Assembly: GCA_965249555.1 (NCBI GenBank)
Contig: OZ252243.1
Coordinates: forward strand, 640,001-704,000
Origin: Nitrosopumilus sp.
GTDB lineage: Archaea; Thermoproteota; Nitrososphaeria; Nitrososphaerales; Nitrosopumilaceae
Direction: 5' to 3'
Length of the DNA: 64,000 bases
Position 1 is the stretch's first letter, and each line of letters opens with the position of its first letter. The notes under the pieces were generated by a model, which had not been told where the DNA came from, did not search any database, and saw nothing but the letters and a program-made list of their open reading frames with translations. Made by a program: the position numbers and the translations under genes. Below are positions 19 through 19,297 of this stretch, one piece after another.

Positions 19-3000
19 GCTTCAAGAGAGTTGTAACTTTATCGTTACAGAAATTTGGTGGTCATGTGCCATATCAGAACGCCCTGATGTTATGCTTCAA
101 TGGGGCTGTAACTTTATCGTTACAGAAATTTGAGAATAAATCCAGTAATAAATGGATTACCAGTTCCAGCGCTTCAATGGGGCTGTAACTTTATCGTTAC
201 AGAAATTTTATGCGCTATGTGTTATGTTTGTCATACTCATGTAGCTTCAATGGGGCTGTAACTTTATCGTTACAGAAATTTCACAAATTGTAATACAATA
301 AGGGTACTATAACGGTTGCTTCAATGGGGCTGTAACTTTATCGTTACAGAAATTTTATGCGCTATGTGTTATGTTTGTCATACTCATGTAGCTTCAATGG
401 GGCTGTAACTTTATCGTTACAGAAATCACTCGGATGTTGTTTTCCCTGCACGTCTGATATACAGAGCTTCAATGGGGCTGTAACTTTACCGTTACAGAAA
501 TTGGCTCCAGCTTTGGTAATCTCAAGAATGATCTCGCCACGCTTCAATGGGGCTGTAACTTTATCGTTACAGAAATCACTCGGATGTTGTTTTCCCTGCA
601 CGTCTGATATACAGAGCTTCAATGGGGCTGTAACTTTACCGTTACAGAAATTGGCTCCAGCTTTGGTAATCTCAAGAATGATCTCGCCACGCTTCAATGG
701 GGCTGTAACTTTATCGTTACAGAAATGGCTTAATCAAAGATGTTATCTCAATGTCCGTATATTATCAACTTCAATGGGGCTGTAACTTTATCGTTACAGA
801 AATATAAAGAGGAAGCTGAGGGTTTCACAATCGATTTTCTAGCTTCAATGGGGCTGTAACTTTATCGTTACAGAAATTTTGTGAGGTTTGAAGTTTGAAG
901 TGGACAGTTTCCCAAGCTTCAATGGGGCTGTAACTTTATCGTTACAGAAATTCTGTTATCTTTGATTTTTAGTTTGATTTTATCTTCTTCAGCTTCAATG
1001 GGGCTGTAACTTTATCGTTACAGAAATCTAAAAATGTTTTGACTGCTGTCGGCGTGTAAGCCGGGCTTCAATGGGGCTGTAACTTTATCGTTACAGAAAT
1101 TTCCATCAGCTCCAGTTTCATCTTTACCAAATGCTTTGCTTCAATGGGGCTGTAACTTTATCGTTACAGAAATTTCTCCAGCCGGATATTGATAACCGTG
1201 AGCCTTCATGCTTCAATGGGGCTGTAACTTTATCGTTACAGAAATTTCGAAAAGCCAATTAGTAAACTTGGTACGACTCACCTGCTTCAATGGGGCTGTA
1301 ACTTTATCGTTACAGAAATTGTAAGTTACAGGATAACGCAATAAATCTATGCTCAGCTTCAATGGGGCTGTAACTTTATCGTTACAGAAATACTTTATCA
1401 CGATTACGGTTTAGATAGTCAAGGACAAGCTTCAATGGGGCTGTAACTTTATCGTTACAGAAATAAATGAATCAGCGAATAGTTCGACATCAAATTTCTT
1501 GCTTCAATGGGGCTGTAACTTTATCGTTACAGAAATCTGATGATAACATCTTTGCTGAATTTCATGTTCATGCTGCTTCAATGGGGCTGTAACTTTATCG
1601 TTACAGAAATCATGAGTGATTTGTTGTCCTCGAGTTGGTCCTCCATGTGCTTCAATGGGGCTGTAACTTTATCGTTACAGAAATGATACAACTTGAAAAT
1701 ATTGCAAAAGCAGAAGCACGCTTCAATGGGGCTGTAACTTTATCGTTACAGAAATTGGAAAATCAAGCTTCAAAATTAATGGCTACAACATCGCTTCAAT
1801 GGGGCTGTAACTTTATCGTTACAGAAATTTCCCTATGGACCTTCCTTTGCAGGTCCTTGTATTTCTCAGCTTCAATGGGGCTGTAACTTTATCGTTACAG
1901 AAATGCGGCAGCCAATCCCGACGGCTTGGCTTCCATCATAGACGCTTCAATGGGGCTGTAACTTTATCGTTACAGAAATGTAGTAATTGCATTCATCTGC
2001 ATTTGACTTGCACCACCGCTTCAATGGGGCTGTAACTTTATCGTTACAGAAATTTCGGCTTTGAAAATTGCTAATGCTTTAGATTTTTTGCTTCAATGGG
2101 GCTGTAACTTTATCGTTACAGAAATCTTGATGTCTCAAACAGCAAGAGTTCAAACTAGATTAGCTTCAATGGGGCTGTAACTTTATCGTTACAGAAATAT
2201 AGAACGGTTATCAGGTCAAAGAGCGTTAAAAGTAGCTTCAATGGGGCTGTAACTTTATCGTTACAGAAATTTGGATAGCGATTGGATAGCTATGACAAAG
2301 CAACTGGAAGCTTCAATGGGGCTGTAACTTTATCGTTACAGAAATCTGCATCAGTAAGAAATAGTAGATTGTCTACAGCCGTTGCTTCAATGGGGCTGTA
2401 ACTTTATCGTTACAGAAATGATGGATCAGGCTATACCAGGGGTATTGGGTCAGGGATGCTTCAATGGGGCTGTAACTTTATCGTTACAGAAATTTAGTGT
2501 TACTGAAAATTCTAGGTTAGGATGGTCCAAAGCTTCAATGGGGCTGTAACTTTATCGTTACAGAAATTTTGAAAAAGAAACTTTGAAAGAAGACAAAGAG
2601 AGAGCGCTTCAATGGGGCTGTAACTTTATCGTTACAGAAATCTTAGGTTGTAGAACTCAAAGAACAGCTGACATTATCGCTTCAATGGGGCTGTAACTTT
2701 ATCGTTACAGAAATGTCAGAATTAGTTTGAGTAAAAACACTACCTTTTCTCGCTTCAATGGGGCTGTAACTTTATCGTTACAGAAATTTAGCATACAAGA
2801 GATAGCCTCCGATACCAACCGCTCCTGGCTTCAATGGGGCTGTAACTTTATCGTTACAGAAATTTCTCAAAATGAAAAAAATTGTTAACAATGTCCAAGC
2901 TTCAATGGGGCTGTAACTTTATCGTTACAGAAATTTTGAGCCTTTCAATTACACTAGTTAAAATTTTAGATGCTTCAATGGGGCTGTAACTTTATCGTTA

Positions 3001-3538
3001 CAGAAATCACCAAGTCGTGCAATACCTCCACCAGGTCCTCCTGGCTTCAATGGGGCTGTAACTTTATCGTTACAGAAATTTGATTGTTTCGACAAGATTC
3101 CAACTGACACCTAGATCCTGGAGGCTTCAATGGGGCTGTAACTTTATCGTTACAGAAATTAGGATATCAGCGCCACGACTTAGGCCCGCTGCTAAATTTG
3201 TGCTTCAATGGGGCTGTAACTTTATCGTTACAGAAATATGGTATACAAGCAACATATCCGTACGAAGTGTGTATTGTCTACGCTTCAATGGGGCTGTAAC
3301 TTTATCGTTACAGAAATATCGAATTTAGAAAACTTGTCGCAATTAGAACATTTATGCTTCAATGGGGCTGTAACTTTATCGTTACAGAAATTTTTATAGA
3401 GCTATAAAGCCTAATATAAACCCTAAATGCTTCAATGGGGCTGTAACTTTATCGTTACAGAAATTTCTGTTTGTTCTTTTTTAGCCTTGTCAAGACTACT
3501 TTGCTTCAATGGGGCTGTAACTTTATCGTTACAGAAAT
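19..3538 (-). CRISPR. CRISPR array, 48 repeats / 47 spacers (about 35-44 bp), type I-G (I-U)-like repeat ATTTCTGTAACGATAAAGTTACAGCCCCATTGAAGC
   Basis: 36-bp repeat with a 7-bp hairpin CTGTAAC/GTTACAG and 3' end ATTGAAGC on the minus strand. The degenerate terminal repeat at 19-54 (4 mismatches) marks the trailer end, so the leader is on the cas2 side. Single-base variant repeats at 466, 616 and 768. Confidence 0.99.
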
Positions 3539-3691
3539 GGGGTCATTTTCTCTAAAACCGTTATCATGTTTTTGTTTCTAGTTGTTTTTCAATTGTTATC
3601 TGACGATTCAAGCAAATCATAGACATTGCTGTGGTATGATATTTTTTTCATATATATTATATCTGCGAGAGTATTATCATACTTACCTTGA
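3539..3691 (-). promoter_or_regulatory. CRISPR leader
   Basis: AT-rich non-coding stretch between cas2 and the first intact repeat, opposite the degenerate end; TATA-like run near 3650-3660. Confidence 0.7.
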
Positions 3692-3801
3692 CTTGTAACC
3701 CATCGCATTTTCTTTGCCCTATATCACTTGCGCAAAGCTCTTGATAGGGCTTCTTGTCAGGCATCTTGTAACCCATCGCATTTTCTTTGCCCTATATCAC
3801 T
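3692..3801. repeat. 37-bp direct repeat (3692-3728, 3765-3801) flanking a 36-bp unique insert
   Basis: CTTGTAACCCATCGCATTTTCTTTGCCCTATATCACT present twice, exact; the second copy overlaps the cas2 stop codon. Confidence 0.95.
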
Positions 3802-4079
3802 ACGGATCTCTCCCTTTCCGTATCCATTTGTGCCCCTATTACTGATATTCTTTCTTTACTTTTATTTAAGGAGCCAAGATTAATTATCAAAATTTTATCT
3901 TCAACCATATTCATTATATCCTCTAACTCTTCTTTCATAATTATTATTTCCTTGTAGTTAAGATCACACATAAACACAGAATATTGTACAGGTTCCCCAT
4001 ACCCCTTCATCTTTTTATGTATCTGTATCAATCGTTGCGGATCATGTATATCGTAACATACAAAGTATCTATTGCGCAA
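3792..4079 (-). CDS. cas2: CRISPR-associated endonuclease Cas2
   Basis: YFVCYDI..D..R and VQYSVF motifs; likely TTG start at 4079 just after the cas1 stop (ORF track start 4139 overlaps cas1). Confidence 0.96.
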   Translation of the reverse strand: MRNRYFVCYDIHDPQRLIQIHKKMKGYGEPVQYSVFMCDLNYKEIIIMKEELEDIMNMVEDKILIINLGSLNKSKERISVIGAQMDTERERSVVI

Positions 4080-4083
4080 ACCT

Positions 4084-5769
4084 TCATCTTGTCCTAAATG
4101 CAGGATATGTTGGAATCTCTCCAAGAATATGTCTGGCAAGTAATCTTGTTTGAGTTTCCATTATGCGTTTATAGCTGGCAGCATAACCCAAAAGTGGATG
4201 AATAACAACAGAATCCATACGTCTCTCATATGCAGTTATCACTGTAGAACGCCCTCTATTGGTAAGGTTTGTTCCAAAGTCGGTCTTTATCAAATCTGAT
4301 TCATTGATTTCACCGTTATTGATAAGCGTAATACATGTAGAATCTGCTACAATTGGTCTGAATTCCTCGATCATATCAAGTGCAAGTGCGGGTTTCCCAT
4401 ATTTTGGCATATGAAGAAATCCCAGATAGGGATCAAGACCTACTCTACTAACTGTAATCATTGCATTCCTTGTCAACATTGCATATAGAAATGACATAAT
4501 TGCATTAACTGGATCCTTTGGAGGTCTTCTGTTTCTTCCATTAAAATCAAAAGCCGTTGATTCAGATTTTATCATGCCATTAAATTCTGAAAAATATATG
4601 CGTGCAGCCATTCCCTCTATTCCAAGAAGAGTATCATATTGTTTTACAGTACATGCACGTTGTGCAAGTATGTTCATCTTGTGTATCTTATCTATAGGGG
4701 GAGATTTGTGGTTTCTACGTAGCATTGTCATGCAATTTTTTATTTTTCCAAACACCATCTGACGAGCTATCCCAATGGATGCATTTTTAACATCATATTT
4801 TTTATGCTGTTTAATTCGCAGTTCTATATTTTTATGTGAAAGTCCTGTAGTAATACCCGTAAACCATCCTCCATATGTCATGTAACAGATAGGAATATTT
4901 CGCTTGCTTAACTCCCTTATTGCTTGTGTTGTGATCTGGATATTTCCAAATAGTGTAATTTCTGAAATGTCTATCAATCTAATCTTCTTTATTATTGTAT
5001 CTTTTAATTTTACATGAATGCAATCATTTGATTTTGTAATATGTGCTCCCTGTTCCTGTATGTATACTGGTATGGTGTCATTTCTTATTGGATACATTCT
5101 GCGTATCTGGTCCTTGTTTATTTGATGAGTCTCATCTGATAACAAATTGACTTCATCAGGTAGACATATTCCCACAAGGGAACATCTTGGACATTTCGGA
5201 CTGTCAACCAACGGAGCAGGTATTGTATATGACTTTGCCATTTCTTTCATCTCTTTGATCATCTGTAATGTTTTTTTTACTGTTTGATCATCTAGATTAA
5301 TTTCTATTCTTTGCTTTGATGCAATATAATAAACAAAACCCTTTGTACATGTGTATCCATTTGCACGTAGTAAAAGTCCTTGAGCACATACTTGTATGAT
5401 GTGATCATCATATGTTCTGTTAGGAGTATTGGGAGTGCTGCCACGTTTGTATTCTATTGGTGTTGCAACGTTTCCATCTAATTCAAGTAGATCTGTTTTA
5501 GATATCAATCCAAGCTCTGTATCAGACAAAGTAACTGATCTGGCATGAATCTTTTCTACTGTGATATTATCTTTATCGGTCTTTTGTTCAAGCATTTTTC
5601 CTCCTGACGGTTTGTCTACATTTCTATGCTGATATTTGCCGTCTATCACATCTTTGTTGGATTCAAATTCCCCTTGAACCCATTCCATATATGCAAGTCG
5701 TTTACAATATACGAATTGTGTTAGCATTCTTACTGGTATAAGATTTGAATTAACACTTGATGTACTCAT
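4084..5769 (-). CDS. cas1: Cas4-Cas1 fusion protein (typical of type I-G/I-U)
   Basis: N-terminal Cas4 (YCKR, KTD..IEYK, CPRCSLVGIC Fe-S cysteines); C-terminal Cas1 (GIEG, RRPPKDPVNA, GFLH, LALDMIEEFR). Confidence 0.97.
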   Translation of the reverse strand: MSTSSVNSNLIPVRMLTQFVYCKRLAYMEWVQGEFESNKDVIDGKYQHRNVDKPSGGKMLEQKTDKDNITVEKIHARSVTLSDTELGLISKTDLLELDGNVATPIEYKRGSTPNTPNRTYDDHIIQVCAQGLLLRANGYTCTKGFVYYIASKQRIEINLDDQTVKKTLQMIKEMKEMAKSYTIPAPLVDSPKCPRCSLVGICLPDEVNLLSDETHQINKDQIRRMYPIRNDTIPVYIQEQGAHITKSNDCIHVKLKDTIIKKIRLIDISEITLFGNIQITTQAIRELSKRNIPICYMTYGGWFTGITTGLSHKNIELRIKQHKKYDVKNASIGIARQMVFGKIKNCMTMLRRNHKSPPIDKIHKMNILAQRACTVKQYDTLLGIEGMAARIYFSEFNGMIKSESTAFDFNGRNRRPPKDPVNAIMSFLYAMLTRNAMITVSRVGLDPYLGFLHMPKYGKPALALDMIEEFRPIVADSTCITLINNGEINESDLIKTDFGTNLTNRGRSTVITAYERRMDSVVIHPLLGYAASYKRIMETQTRLLARHILGEIPTYPAFRTR

Positions 5770-6112: not shown

Positions 6113-6637
6113 TTATACAAACTTTCTAGCCTTCATTCTCTTGATTTTTTCTTGCAACAAAATACATCCTTGGATGAGAGTTTCAGGTCTAGGCGGACAG
6201 CCAGGAACATAGACATCGACTGGAATCACTCCGTCAATTCCCGGAAGTACATTGTATGAATCAAAATACAACCCCCCAGTAATTGCACAAGCTCCCATAG
6301 CAATTACATACTTTGGTTCTGGCATTTGATCATAAACTAGTCTGAGACGTGGTGCCATTTTTCTTGTAATAGTTCCTTGAACAACAATTAGATCACATTG
6401 TCTAAGTGATCCAAATGCCTCAATGATACCAAATCTTTCAACATCATATCTAGGACTTGATGCTGCACCAAATTCAACACTGCAGCAAGCCGTTTCAATG
6501 TGGACAGGCCAGAGTGACCAAATTCTACCCCAATTGATGGCATAGCCCAATGGTTTGCCGATTGCCCGCTCTAAAATGTCCCCTAGCTTTCCTACAAAGA
6601 CATTTGCATTTTCTGGCGTTACTAAATCATTAAGCAA
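6113..6637 (-). CDS. nuoB: NADH-quinone oxidoreductase subunit B
   Basis: TACCSVE, GACAITGG and VPGCPPRPE Fe-S motifs. Confidence 0.97.
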   Translation of the reverse strand: MLNDLVTPENANVFVGKLGDILERAIGKPLGYAINWGRIWSLWPVHIETACCSVEFGAASSPRYDVERFGIIEAFGSLRQCDLIVVQGTITRKMAPRLRLVYDQMPEPKYVIAMGACAITGGLYFDSYNVLPGIDGVIPVDVYVPGCPPRPETLIQGCILLQEKIKRMKARKFV

Positions 6638-6676
6638 TCTTATCCCCTATCTCATAAATGCAATTTATATAAAAAA

Positions 6677-7051
6677 CTACCATATTCTTCGCCTCCCAGA
6701 CTGATACAATGCAAATGCCATTGCGCCAAACATTATAGCTAAAAATCCCATCATTGGCAAAGTTGCACTCTTTGGAAGTTCCAAAAGGGCACTTCCCCAG
6801 GCATACAGGAAGATTGCCATGACATCAAAGACTACAAACATCAGAATGTAGGGATAATACTGCATCATAAAGTGAGTCCGGCCTTCGCCTGACGGGACTT
6901 GACCGCATTCCATTGGTAAAAATTTCACAGGATTGTTTATTTTTCGAGGAGAAATCATCCTAGAAATAACTAAAGCCGGAGCCATAGCTGCTACGGCAAA
7001 TCCAAACATCAATACAACAATACTGTAATTGCCCGCTAATTCTCCGACCAA
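6677..7051 (-). CDS. nuoA: NADH-quinone oxidoreductase subunit A
   Basis: Three hydrophobic helices, PMECG loop, FVVFDV; directly upstream of nuoB. Confidence 0.95.
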   Translation of the reverse strand: MVGELAGNYSIVVLMFGFAVAAMAPALVISRMISPRKINNPVKFLPMECGQVPSGEGRTHFMMQYYPYILMFVVFDVMAIFLYAWGSALLELPKSATLPMMGFLAIMFGAMAFALYQSGRRRIW

Positions 7052-7097: not shown

Positions 7098-8030
7098 GGT
7101 TCTCCCATACGAAATCGTCTCCAACCCTACTGAGGACACTTACTAGCGTGCTTTGCTGAATCAGGACATCTCAGATATGCTTTGCATCTTATACTTTCGT
7201 TGTGTCAGTTCATGATTTTGTGTACGATACACTTTCAGAATTTGTTAGCATGTACCCGGATTATTGCAAGCATCCGGTCTTGCAGCTGCCACCTTTGCCT
7301 TTTGTTTTCCTCTTCTCTTTGCAATTCTGAAATAGAATGATTCCATTCTTTCATCAAATCGTACTATAGTATTTGCAGCCTCTACCATTGCGTTACGTAA
7401 CCATGCAGAACCCCTCTTTGTTATTCCGCCTCCTCGGTGCACATCTGCGCTGTCCCTGTGCGATGGTGCAAGTCCTGCATATGAGACTAGTTTTTCTGCT
7501 GTTGCAAATCTGCTGATGTCAACTATCTCTGAAATTATTGTCAATGCCGTGACATAGTTTATTCCAGGAATGGTCATTAGCAGTCTTGTTTTCTCATCCT
7601 CATTGCTAATTGTTGCAATCTTTATCTCAATTGTGTTGATCTGTTTTTGCATCATATCTATGCTGTCAAGATATGCATCCATTGCCATTCTGTCAACCTC
7701 ACTCAGATTAATTTCATGCAACCATCGTACTCCTTTTTGCGAGAATGTCTTTGTGGGTGTAATCATATTTTGCAAGTATTGCATAAATCATGTTTTTGTG
7801 TTTTGATACATTTCGCACGCGATTCAGTCTGGTTCTTACCAGACTGTATAGGTCTCTATAGTATTTTTCTGGTACGAATGAGCTGTACACCATGTCTGCT
7901 CTTAGCAAGTCTGCCAATACGTCTGAATCAAGTTTGTCGTTTTTTATCTTTGCCTGTGCAATTATCTTGGTCTTTGCAGGATGTGCGAGAACTGTATCAA
8001 TTCCATGGTCTTCTAGTGTGTCATGGAGTC
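7098..8030 (-). pseudogene. IS110-family transposase remnant (5'-truncated, frameshifted) with its 3' end
   Basis: KNDKLDSDVLADLLR, TIPGI, SYAGLAP and KRGSAWLR motifs split over several frames; 3' end sequence recurs at 24511, 32551 and 34399. Confidence 0.9.
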
Positions 8031-8910: not shown

Positions 8911-9923
8911 ATGCCTACCTTATTAACAACCAGAGATCGAATTAGTTTTGAGGATAAAATACAGACAAAAGCAGTCAATACGCAGAAAACATCCCAGTCA
9001 TCAGTAAGAAACTTTGAGAGATTTTGCAAGGAAAAGTATGACAAATCAATGGAGGAGATAATATCAGAATATCACAAAGTTGAGATGGATTTAATCTATG
9101 AATCACTGCAAGAATGGATAAACTGGAACAATACAAAGGTTCATTCAAACAGCATTCCTACACTGTTTTCATATCTCAAAACATACCTAAGATATCACAA
9201 GATAAGAATTACAAAAGAGGATGTGGTAAAACAGCTGAGTTTACCTCACAAGGTCAAAGAGGAGAAATATCCATTGACAAAAGAGGAGATCAGAAGCCGA
9301 TGATTTTTTGTTTGATATTGAACATGATTACCTGGGAGAAATATCCATTGACAAAAGAGGAGATCAGAAGGATACTGCAAGTATGCAATAAGAATAACAC
9401 GATCAAGATTCTGGCACAGTTATCAAGTGATATGAGAAAAGGGGAATTGCTCCAGCTGAAAAAAAGAGATCTTGGACAAAAAAGAATCATGGTAAATATT
9501 CCTGCAAGTATTACAAAGACAAAAAGATCAAGGGTGACTTTTTTTAGCAGAGAGATAATACCTTTACTGATGCCGATTCTTAGAAGGCTCTGGCTGATGA
9601 TGACAGAGTGTTTTTTCGTGGAAAGCTAAATCCTGCAAACATAAGCAATCACTACCAGCTGATTCTGACAGAGTATCTAAAGAGGACAGGGCTTGATCAA
9701 AAATATGAATCCGGACGTCACAAGATAACAACACACAGCTTTAGGGCATTTTTTATCACAAAGGTGTCTCTTCATGATCCAAACCTTGCAAAGTACTTTG
9801 CAGGACAGGAACAAACAAGAGACCTGCTGATGTATGACATATTGACAGCAGATGAAAAGTGAGAAAACTATATCAAATTTGAGCCTGATTTGTTGATATG
9901 GGATTCAAATAAAAGCGTAAGGT
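8911..9923 (+). pseudogene. tyrosine recombinase/integrase, disrupted
   Basis: Three frames carry the N-terminal binding domain, SSDMRKGELLQL (catalytic R), KTK, HSFR and LMY; broken by a 74-bp insertion at about 9297, a frameshift near 9590 and a stop at 9860. Confidence 0.9.
9261..9370. repeat. 36-bp direct repeat (9261-9296, 9335-9370) flanking a 38-bp unique insert
   Basis: GGAGAAATATCCATTGACAAAAGAGGAGATCAGAAG present twice, exact; flanking bases differ on both sides. Confidence 0.97.
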
Positions 9924-9936
9924 AAGGCCAACTGTC

Positions 9937-10629
9937 ATGCCACATGTCTCAATTTATGTTGATGAATCAGGAGATATTGGATTTAAAAGATCATCAGAGT
10001 TCTTTACTGTAGGATATGTGTTTACTGTTAACAAGTTTCCTCAAAAAGAAAATAGGAGAATGAAAAAATTATTAAAGAATATCAATCTAGGTATCAAAAA
10101 ACACAATAAAAAAATTTCAGAATTCAAGTTTTCAGACAATACACATGAAATTAGAAAGAAGGTTTTACATGAAATACAAAAATTGGATGCAAACATTGGT
10201 GTCATATGTATAAGCAAGGATTCAGTAAAGGCAAAATTGAAAAAGGATCCCATCAGATTCTACAGCTATGTCATAATTGAGAATATTGCAACGGTGCTAG
10301 TAAATGATTATATGAAAACATATGATCCTTACAACAACATTCGTTTTACAATAGACAGAAGTTTATCAAAAAATCAGATTAAATCATTTAATGAATACTG
10401 TGAAGAAAAAATATCATACAAAACACATCAAAGGGATCAGGAAATGGAAATACGCACAACAATCAAGCATGAGGATTCAAAAAAAGTTCCGATGCTGCAA
10501 GTTGCAGACTATATAGCAGGTGCAACACAGAGAAAAATTGTACATAGAGATTCAACATACTATAATATAATTTCAGAGAGAATAAAACATCGTGAAAAAT
10601 GGGATTGGAACAACAAAATTAGTTGGTGA
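9937..10629 (+). CDS. DUF3800 domain protein
   Basis: N-terminal IYVDESG, EFKF and C-terminal S......LQVADYIAG motifs. Confidence 0.85.
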   Translation: MPHVSIYVDESGDIGFKRSSEFFTVGYVFTVNKFPQKENRRMKKLLKNINLGIKKHNKKISEFKFSDNTHEIRKKVLHEIQKLDANIGVICISKDSVKAKLKKDPIRFYSYVIIENIATVLVNDYMKTYDPYNNIRFTIDRSLSKNQIKSFNEYCEEKISYKTHQRDQEMEIRTTIKHEDSKKVPMLQVADYIAGATQRKIVHRDSTYYNIISERIKHREKWDWNNKISW

Positions 10630-16307: not shown

Positions 16308-16660
16308 CTAAAATAAGATAAAAAATGATATATTTAAAATCTTCTGATTAATACGCTGTCAATCTTAGGGTCATTTGCCTTTACTGTTCAATTCGAATCA
16401 TGAAAAATTAAAGTTGTATGCCGTTACATATTAGGCATAGAAATAGACAGTTTTGGTTGTATGGGAATGTCATTTCCTATAATTCTACCACGATAAACCT
16501 TACTTGAAAGTATCATCATTTAGAAAATTAACAAATCGAATATAAAGTTCTGGCATACTCTCATGTAGCCATTGATACAGTCTGGAGACACCATATTGGG
16601 AGATGAAAATGGACTTTGTATTTTAGTTCAATATTATTTGAGTTTAATATACATTGAATT

Positions 16661-18721: not shown

Positions 18722-19297
18722 CTAAATTCTAATTTTTTAATAAAGTCTAAAAAAGACACTTTTAGATCCAAAAAATAGGCATGAATACACCTGAAAATTG
18801 ATTAAAAAAATATGATCATACTTTGCAAGTTATAACTCCCATCTGATTTTGAGGACCTAGATTTTTAGGCGTAAAAATTGAATATAATTCATTATTCCTA
18901 AATCCAGTCTTCTAAGGACATGGTGTTTTTAGATTCTTGTTTTGATTTTTTCCTTTGTTGAATCTCATCTAACTTTATTTCCTTTCATTGGGTTGGGAGC
19001 CTTAAGGAAAACCTGCAGAGGCTTTGATAGATGGAAAACCATCATTCAAAATGCAACACCTTACAAGGAAAATTCAGTTTGAAAGAGTCTAGTTCAGATA
19101 AAATTTACATTTCATAATTTATCCCCAAATAACTTTCATCAAACCCTATAGTGACAGAAGTATGGGAGGTAAAACTCACATACAAACAAAACTATCCATC
19201 TATGCCTAATATGTAACGGCACACGACTTTATTTTTTCAAATTTTTCATGTCCCGAATTGAACAGCATGAAATGTCCCTAAGATTGAGCAGACGTAT

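Follow-up and report, generated by a model that had tools for sequence, protein, structure and literature searches.

The window analysed here is the 64,000-nt stretch at positions 640,001–704,000 of a Nitrosopumilus sp. genome that consists of a single contig of 2.23 Mb with 34.4% G+C. A CRISPR array, its leader, cas2 and a fused cas4-cas1 gene follow one another at the start of the window (Table 1). The true repeat of the array has a 7-bp hairpin, and its minus-strand reading ends in ATTGAAGC; because of this repeat end, the hairpin and a degenerate terminal repeat at the far end (19–54), the leader can be placed on the cas2 side of the array and transcription assigned to the minus strand. 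Weak CRISPR-DR16 matches to the array also lie on the minus strand. The Cas4/1 protein is 58–78% identical to Cas4/1 of other Nitrosopumilus and Nitrosopumilaceae. Beyond the array lie a Cas_GSU0053 (Csb1) gene (E 2e-35) and a gene for a Cas3 helicase with a C-terminal HD domain at residues 592–771; two neighbours of 490 and 727 aa have no Pfam match and are assumed from their position to be Csb2 and Cas8u. The Cas4/1 fusion, cas2, Csb1/GSU0053, Cas3-HD and the array together identify the system as type I-G (formerly I-U).

Table 1. Features of the window discussed in the text (coordinates in nt of the window)
Feature	Position	Strand	Remarks
Type I-G CRISPR array	19..3538	-	48 repeats of 36 nt, minus strand ATTTCTGTAACGATAAAGTTACAGCCCCATTGAAGC; 47 spacers of 35-44 nt
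CRISPR leader, 153 nt	3539..3691	-	Between unit and first repeat
Leader-proximal copy of 37-nt target	3692..3728	-	Second, idle cas2 end and stop
36-nt spacer-sized insert	3729..3764	-	Single copy in genome
cas2-proximal copy of 37-nt target	3765..3801	-	Working cas2 end: final 7 coding bases, TAG
cas2	3792..4139	-	115-aa ORF from TTG; Pfam Cas2 E 5e-18; C-terminus intact, ending as in relatives
cas4-cas1 fusion, presumed integrase	4084..5769	-	561 aa; Cas1 E 2e-88 (profile positions 1-282 of 283), Cas4 E 3e-17
Sibling unit	9261..9370	+	36-nt duplication (9261-9296, 9335-9370), 38-nt insert

Several features of the surroundings deserve mention in their own right. The old end of the I-G array contains exact block duplications of repeat-spacer units (171–279 equals 318–426; 391–540 equals 541–690), and internal duplication is thus a further way in which this array grows or rearranges. 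The I-G island of ~13 kb, made up of effector genes, array, cas2 and cas4/1, lies between Pfam-typed NADH-dehydrogenase subunit genes, with chain 3 and the 20-kDa subunit on one side and the 30-kDa, 49-kDa and NADHdh subunits on the other (window 6113–7051; L005 8442–11539, which is genome 628.4–631.5 kb), and it appears to split the operon of this complex. An IS110-family transposase fragment of 179 aa (window 7245–7784) and a DUF3800 gene (9937–10629) are found nearby, and the stretch between the CRISPR island and a broken integrase-like gene looks like a patch of mobile DNA.

A spacer-sized insertion at the end of cas2

Between the leader and cas2, two identical 37-mers flank a 36-nt insert with a period of 73. 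The 37-mer occurs at only these two places in the genome. An initial annotation of the window had described this exact duplication, its insert and its period, all of which are borne out by sequence comparison, and had put it 150 bp from the first true repeat, in good agreement with the 153 nt measured to the repeat end at 3538. An exact 37-mer duplicated at a fixed short distance is not expected as a chance event. Contigs from runs X1 and X4, which are 100% identical to the window, read through the first copy, the insert and the second copy; the unit is therefore not an assembly artefact. Its target comprises the last 10 bases of cas2 and the 27 bases behind the gene, and the cas2 end (...SVVI followed by TAG) falls inside the 37-mer, with the stop at 3794..3792 next to the final 7 coding bases. 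The unit would be tolerated because the stop codon was duplicated along with the target.

The initial annotation proposed comparison with an empty allele in related strains or reads, and such an allele exists. Contigs from runs X5 and X6, which come from two studies and are ~91–93% identical to the window, join position 3691 directly to 3765; their alignment skips 73 nt with an ambiguity of 37, the length of the duplicated stretch, as expected for a single 37-mer. These contigs differ from the window at 17 positions in 183 nt of leader and at 61 in 836 nt of cas2 and cas1, and among the 40 differences listed (31 more exist) none lies inside the 37-mer. Six more distant I-G loci are also single-copy. 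Two belong to genomes of the same genus with the same system (G009 and G014; ~68% DNA identity, Cas2 47–48% identical), in which the alignment has a 72–73-column gap at the unit, and four are further I-G loci named Nitrosopumilus sp. (L136, L131, L140 and L137). Here 253 nt separate the cas2 stop from the first repeat, or 180 nt when the 73 are subtracted, as against ~178 nt in G009. The unit at 3692 is thus an insertion relative to kin loci. Had the insert been ancestral sequence shaped only by a tandem duplication with deletion, a possibility raised in the initial annotation, related loci should carry it; they carry the single-copy target instead.

That the unit is ancestral, and that relatives lost it by recombination between the 37-nt direct repeats, is very improbable, even though a deletion of this kind would yield exactly the single-copy form of X5 and X6. 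Repeated independent losses would be needed to leave a single copy in all seven related forms, which range from ~92% to ~68% DNA identity, and the two copies are identical at 37 of 37 positions although the flanks have diverged by 7–9% from the nearest relative, which favours a recent gain. By comparison, a single gain in recent time is far more probable.

The insert shows no likeness to its surroundings: aligned with 400 nt on each side, on both strands, it scores 18 against a null mean of 18.1. Simple tandem duplication and replication slippage were rejected on this result, since the insert is not derived from local sequence, and complements of 7 and 6 nt between the insert and the 37-mer that had been spotted by eye failed the same local-sequence test.

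Recurrence, length geometry and target choice

Similar units recur elsewhere in this genome and in a relative. A first scan covered exact direct duplications at all periods from 20 to 400 and kept the isolated ones; 12 of the 26 isolated exact duplications of at least 28 nt sit in just seven periods, 69–75. Units were then given a fixed definition (duplication 28–45 nt, insert 28–48 nt, period 64–80), under which this genome (G000) has 13 unit-like events in 2.23 Mb and the I-G-bearing G009 has 17 in 1.03 Mb. Two genomes without Cas1 gave none in the whole 1.36 Mb of G010 and one in 0.4 of the 2.2 Mb of G002. The G002 event, a 34-nt duplication with one mismatch plus 38 nt, counts against a perfect link between units and Cas1. 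The comparison behind this link has two genomes on each side, and differences in lifestyle or genome size may be confounding factors. G002 may also once have had CRISPR, for which a comparison is provided by another Cas1-less genome of the genus (G018:C1:252741-253118) with a six-repeat I-G-like orphan array; I-G-like systems therefore get lost in this genus.

The working list comprises 12 units from this genome and 17 from G009, after units at 16547 and 19053, which the isolation filter had lost, were added and duplications were extended across single mismatches. The 13 events of this genome under the fixed definition include a pair of true repeats at 1884690 and an event at 2053378, the latter dropped from the list afterwards. 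The event at 2053378 (28 + 42) has a counterpart in Cas1-less G010, where a similar 22-nt repeat has a period of 70, and is probably a conserved feature of another kind; a candidate at 1609447 (27 + 36) was dropped as well, since tandem repetition runs on beyond it in diverged form and it has matches in multi-copy sequence.

Two of the 12 units of this genome lie within 6 kb of the cas1-cas2 genes. One is the unit at 3692; the other, the sibling unit at 9261, was the case that the initial annotation saw as independently supported by the unit at 3692, and it stands as a second instance, with its 36-nt duplication and 38-nt insert inside a phage-integrase-like reading frame. It splits this gene into ORFs at 8911–9303 and 9114–9629, and its two copies are in the same codon phase. 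The suggestion in the initial annotation that such a unit could seed a new array finds no counterpart, as every unit stops at two copies with one insert between them. Periods of units in long intact reading frames are 75, 75, 72, 72, 72 and perhaps 69, all multiples of three, as a filter by selection would leave. Units of 70, 71, 73 and 74 nt, together with the 72-nt unit at 1948572, are outside long frames, at gene ends or in broken genes such as that at 9261.

Lengths of duplications and inserts follow a pattern. At 3692 the duplication is 37 nt long against 36 nt for the true repeat, and the 36-nt insert falls within the 35–44 nt of the array spacers. Across the 29 units of both genomes, 36 and 37 nt are the commonest duplication lengths (16 units). 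Longer duplications go with shorter inserts (Spearman -0.68, p 4e-5, n=29), and the sum of the two lengths, 72.6 with an sd of 1.6, varies less than either length by itself and less than it would if they were independent. This is not what a simple fixed-stagger model predicts. Extension of the duplication at the expense of the insert, by chance or micro-homology, explains part of it; it does not explain four G009 units (5187, 34477, 41414 and 186739) with exact 33-nt duplications and 38–40-nt inserts, a subclass at odds with a repeat of 36 nt. A further Cas1 of G009 is encoded at 2.034 Mb.

Some targets may also have a border in common. The motif [CG]TT stands at one 5' end of the duplication in 11 of the 29 units, compared to 6.9% of random sites, although the binomial P of ~2e-6 is overstated because the motif was chosen post hoc. 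The plus-strand end of the true repeat is GCTT and the unit at 3692 starts with CTT on the plus strand; the unit therefore shares the polarity of the array.

Other observations made during these comparisons may be useful. A minus-strand frame of more than 3500 codons with ~246-nt repeats and 45% G+C occupies genome ~10.6–21.3 kb (L126), and contains three in-frame units: those at 16547 and 19053, both of 75 nt, and one of 72 nt at 18809 that is older. The two true I-G repeats with a single spacer between them at genome 1884690–1884801 (L129) stand alone, 1.24 Mb from the main array, and the off-target unit at 1882077 lies 2.6 kb from it. A distantly related I-G locus, in a record named Caldilineaceae bacterium (L152, 6951–7059), has a 36 + 37 + 36 unit within cas4/1 itself, where tblastn gives a match ~70 nt longer than at the other loci.

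Sources of the inserts

A search for the source of the insert at 3729–3764, as proposed in the initial annotation, returned none. The insert has no second copy in its own genome, no match at three or fewer mismatches in 300 other genomes of the family, no exact match in viral or metagenome contigs and no match among plasmid records; among phage records the only match is at chance level (E 0.4, Microbacterium phage). Because its source was not found, it is by size that this insert is called a spacer. The insert of the sibling unit, at 9297, likewise has no match in its own genome by BLAST.

Other inserts can be traced. When 20 candidate inserts of this genome were compared by BLAST (16 of them of the 36-nt class), seven of the 36-nt class matched the same genome elsewhere, over 32/32, 33/33, 35/35, 36/36, 32/33, 31/36 and 31/33 nt, and identity stops at the insert borders. 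True spacers show no such matches at 24 nt or more, either in the I-G array (0/47) or in the second array of the genome (0/60). Self-matching inserts in the units against 0/107 among true spacers are the contrast to be expected if a self-derived spacer is lethal in a working array and does no harm in a place that yields no crRNA.

Within the 47% of the G009 genome examined, inserts at 558127 and 1866811 have exact matches elsewhere; the insert at 1873316 matches a multi-copy element and three others match conserved genes of G000. The insert of a further G009 unit (1872101–1872208) and a true 40-nt spacer of that genome's own I-G array, at 1995542–1995581, have 35 nt in common, 36 if the next base is counted, the overlap being shifted by 5 nt at one end. 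Such an overlap is a more direct link between the units and CRISPR adaptation than their size.

Positions of the traceable sources were also considered. TTN stands upstream of three of the seven self-protospacers, as judged by eye in one displayed strand, which is not clearly above chance. Four of the seven (965252, 984192, 991588 and 1099184) lie near a cumulative GC-skew peak at ~1.0 Mb, three of them at 965–992 kb, although these numbers are small. The three G009 inserts that match G000 genes do so at 1.01–1.06 Mb. The 965–1100 kb region may be a replication-terminus hot spot for prespacers.

Origin of the unit and its significance

The unit at 3692 is probably the scar of an off-target spacer integration by the adjacent type I-G Cas4/1-Cas2, a reading for which, on comparison of sequences, our confidence is high. 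The initial annotation had reached a similar view, of leader-proximal mis-integration by Cas1-Cas2, and this is now supported by the empty allele, the 9261 instance, the genome-wide geometry and sibling inserts copied from elsewhere. The machinery is at hand: full-length cas4/1 and cas2, a predicted integrase, are directly adjacent to the unit, and the I-G effector genes lie beyond the array. In the proposed sequence of events, Cas4/1-Cas2 would be loaded with a 36-nt prespacer, probably of foreign origin, and would attack two strands 36–37 bp apart, 153 bp upstream of the proper leader-repeat junction. Gap repair would then copy the 37 bp between the cuts and give the 37 + 36 + 37 arrangement. 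Cas2 is unchanged because its stop codon lies inside the copied stretch; with the leader-repeat junction untouched as well, the event was probably neutral. The insert is most likely not made into crRNA, because the new "repeats" are without the hairpin and the ATTGAAGC tail.

The main rival is a CRISPR-independent process of the lineage, for example repair or template switching, that adds ~72 nt each time as a short piece copied from DNA elsewhere plus a compensating duplication of the target, so that the match to repeat and spacer sizes is coincidental. We consider it unlikely, while recognizing that the tight sum and the negative correlation of lengths agree with it, as do the unit-like event in 0.4 Mb of Cas1-less G002 and the lack of a clear PAM at the self-protospacers. 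It has more difficulty with the whole 1.36 Mb of Cas1-less G010, in which units number zero, with the repeat length as the commonest duplication (16/29) and with a [CG]TT border common to units and repeat end. The 35-nt overlap between a G009 insert and a true array spacer also argues for adaptation, two units adjoin cas1-cas2, and the G002 event loses weight if that genome once had CRISPR.

Selection for a working mini-array or regulatory RNA, whether a CreA-like repeat-spacer-repeat or a guide controlling cas expression, has very little probability as an alternative to an integration scar. The site between cas2 and leader on the array strand is plausible for such elements, and the predicted fold of the 37-mer (-5.8 kcal/mol) is slightly more stable than those of shuffled sequences (z -3.0). 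However, the unit is conserved in no relative, an Rfam search gave no family matches on 3692–3801, and the insert matches nothing in the genome to which it could guide. The 37-mer also lacks the 7-bp hairpin of the true repeat, and the weak similarity to the array repeat (TGTAAC..ATCG) that the initial annotation had noted dissolves into chance, as 48% of 5000 random genomic 37-mers align as well or better.

The only other Cas1 of the genome belongs to a second CRISPR-Cas system, probably of type I-B (L130 13967–19998; genome 1613.9–1620 kb), with Cas4, Cas1, Cas2, Cas6, a CXXC_CXXC protein and an array of 61 repeats of 30 nt. Its cas4 and cas1 are separated by an IS1595-type transposase gene, its cas2 and cas6 by an IS66-type gene, and its Cas1 match begins only at profile position 33. 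That this second module made the insertion is scarcely credible: its Cas1 and Cas2 are present at 1.615 Mb, but a 30-nt repeat should give duplications of ~30 nt, of which one was seen (29 + 35 at 1840225), and two transposase genes interrupt it. A casposase origin was rejected, as the target duplication reported for a casposase is 13 bp (PMC8464041) and the genome has no third Cas1 homologue.

The reaction itself is already known, and the unit at 3692 adds an unusually well-documented natural case. Off-target integrations were detected in the E. coli type I-E system with over-expressed Cas1-Cas2 (Nivala, Shipman and Church 2018, Nat Microbiol 3:310), as related in PMC7054753, bioRxiv 10.1101/148544 and PMC6698737; one of these accounts describes evidence outside E. 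coli as "circumstantial" and from two species (10.1101/148544). The E. coli "neo-CRISPR" units, as described in these accounts, resemble those reported here in having a spacer-sized insert, a repeat-length duplication of a non-CRISPR target and an active Cas1-Cas2, which is predicted in our case. Unlike them, the present units are natural and archaeal, are associated with a type I-G system with a Cas4-Cas1 fusion, have an empty allele in a wild relative, and occur as 12–17 sibling scars per genome, many with self-derived inserts. Pyrococcus furiosus Cas1-Cas2 in vitro is reported to keep repeat-length cut spacing at non-CRISPR sites, with likeness to the repeat mainly at the borders (PMC6698737). 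The 36–37 bp spacing and the enriched [CG]TT border found here, a motif identified post hoc, are similar, whereas the P. furiosus targets were plasmids in vitro with 30-bp spacing and other border bases and the present scars are fixed in chromosomes.

The type I-U (I-G) Cas4/1-Cas2 of Geobacter sulfurreducens is described as having a predominant spacer length of 36 bp and TTN PAMs in 50–80% of spacers (PMC6547450). The module studied here is alike in its Cas4-Cas1 fusion with Cas2 beside leader and array and in its 36-nt insert; the TTN frequency compares with three of seven traceable self-protospacers in our case. "Ectopic spacer acquisition" in type II-A systems of Streptococcus thermophilus and S. 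mutans takes place away from the leader-proximal repeat (PMC7999890, PMC5338259). According to these papers, such spacers enter a true repeat inside the array, whereas the target here is no repeat, so that the word "ectopic" in the title of the initial annotation could mislead. Within the genus, Ca. Nitrosopumilus koreensis has a family 1 casposase, a Cas1-family integrase that, by the account in PMC8464041, also duplicates its target, but over 13 bp compared to 37 nt here. No report of scars of the present kind in Nitrosopumilus or type I-G systems was found in open-access papers and preprints.

Taken jointly, these findings suggest a broader reading to which we give even chances: in I-G-carrying Nitrosopumilus, off-target Cas4/1-Cas2 integration would be a source of mutation that acts again and again instead of an occasional accident, would have left at least a dozen spacer-sized pieces, mostly of own DNA, in each chromosome, and would provide both an uncensored sampling record and a ruler for repeat plus spacer. 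If this is true, insertions break some genes and add 23–25 amino acids in frame to others, and several pieces in this genome come from near the GC-skew switch at ~1.0 Mb, which is maybe the replication terminus. The scars would escape autoimmune selection because no crRNA is made from them, and would then be a natural record of what the adaptation machinery samples. The near-constant total of ~72.6 nt would, if true, act as a ruler for repeat plus spacer when no repeat motifs anchor the second cut.

Off-target integration has been demonstrated mainly with over-expressed E. coli Cas1-Cas2 and in vitro. The unit at 3692 is an unusually clean case, in which filled and empty alleles both occur in the wild and the integrase gene is adjacent. 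Units of this kind should not be annotated as small CRISPR arrays. The contrast between self-derived scar inserts and the 0/107 self-matching true spacers would make visible the autoimmune filter that acts on CRISPR memory, and the raw sampling preferences of the type I-G adaptation module could be read from genomes alone. CRISPR adaptation in these archaea can, on this evidence, act as a mutagen, by gene disruption and by in-frame insertions into proteins.
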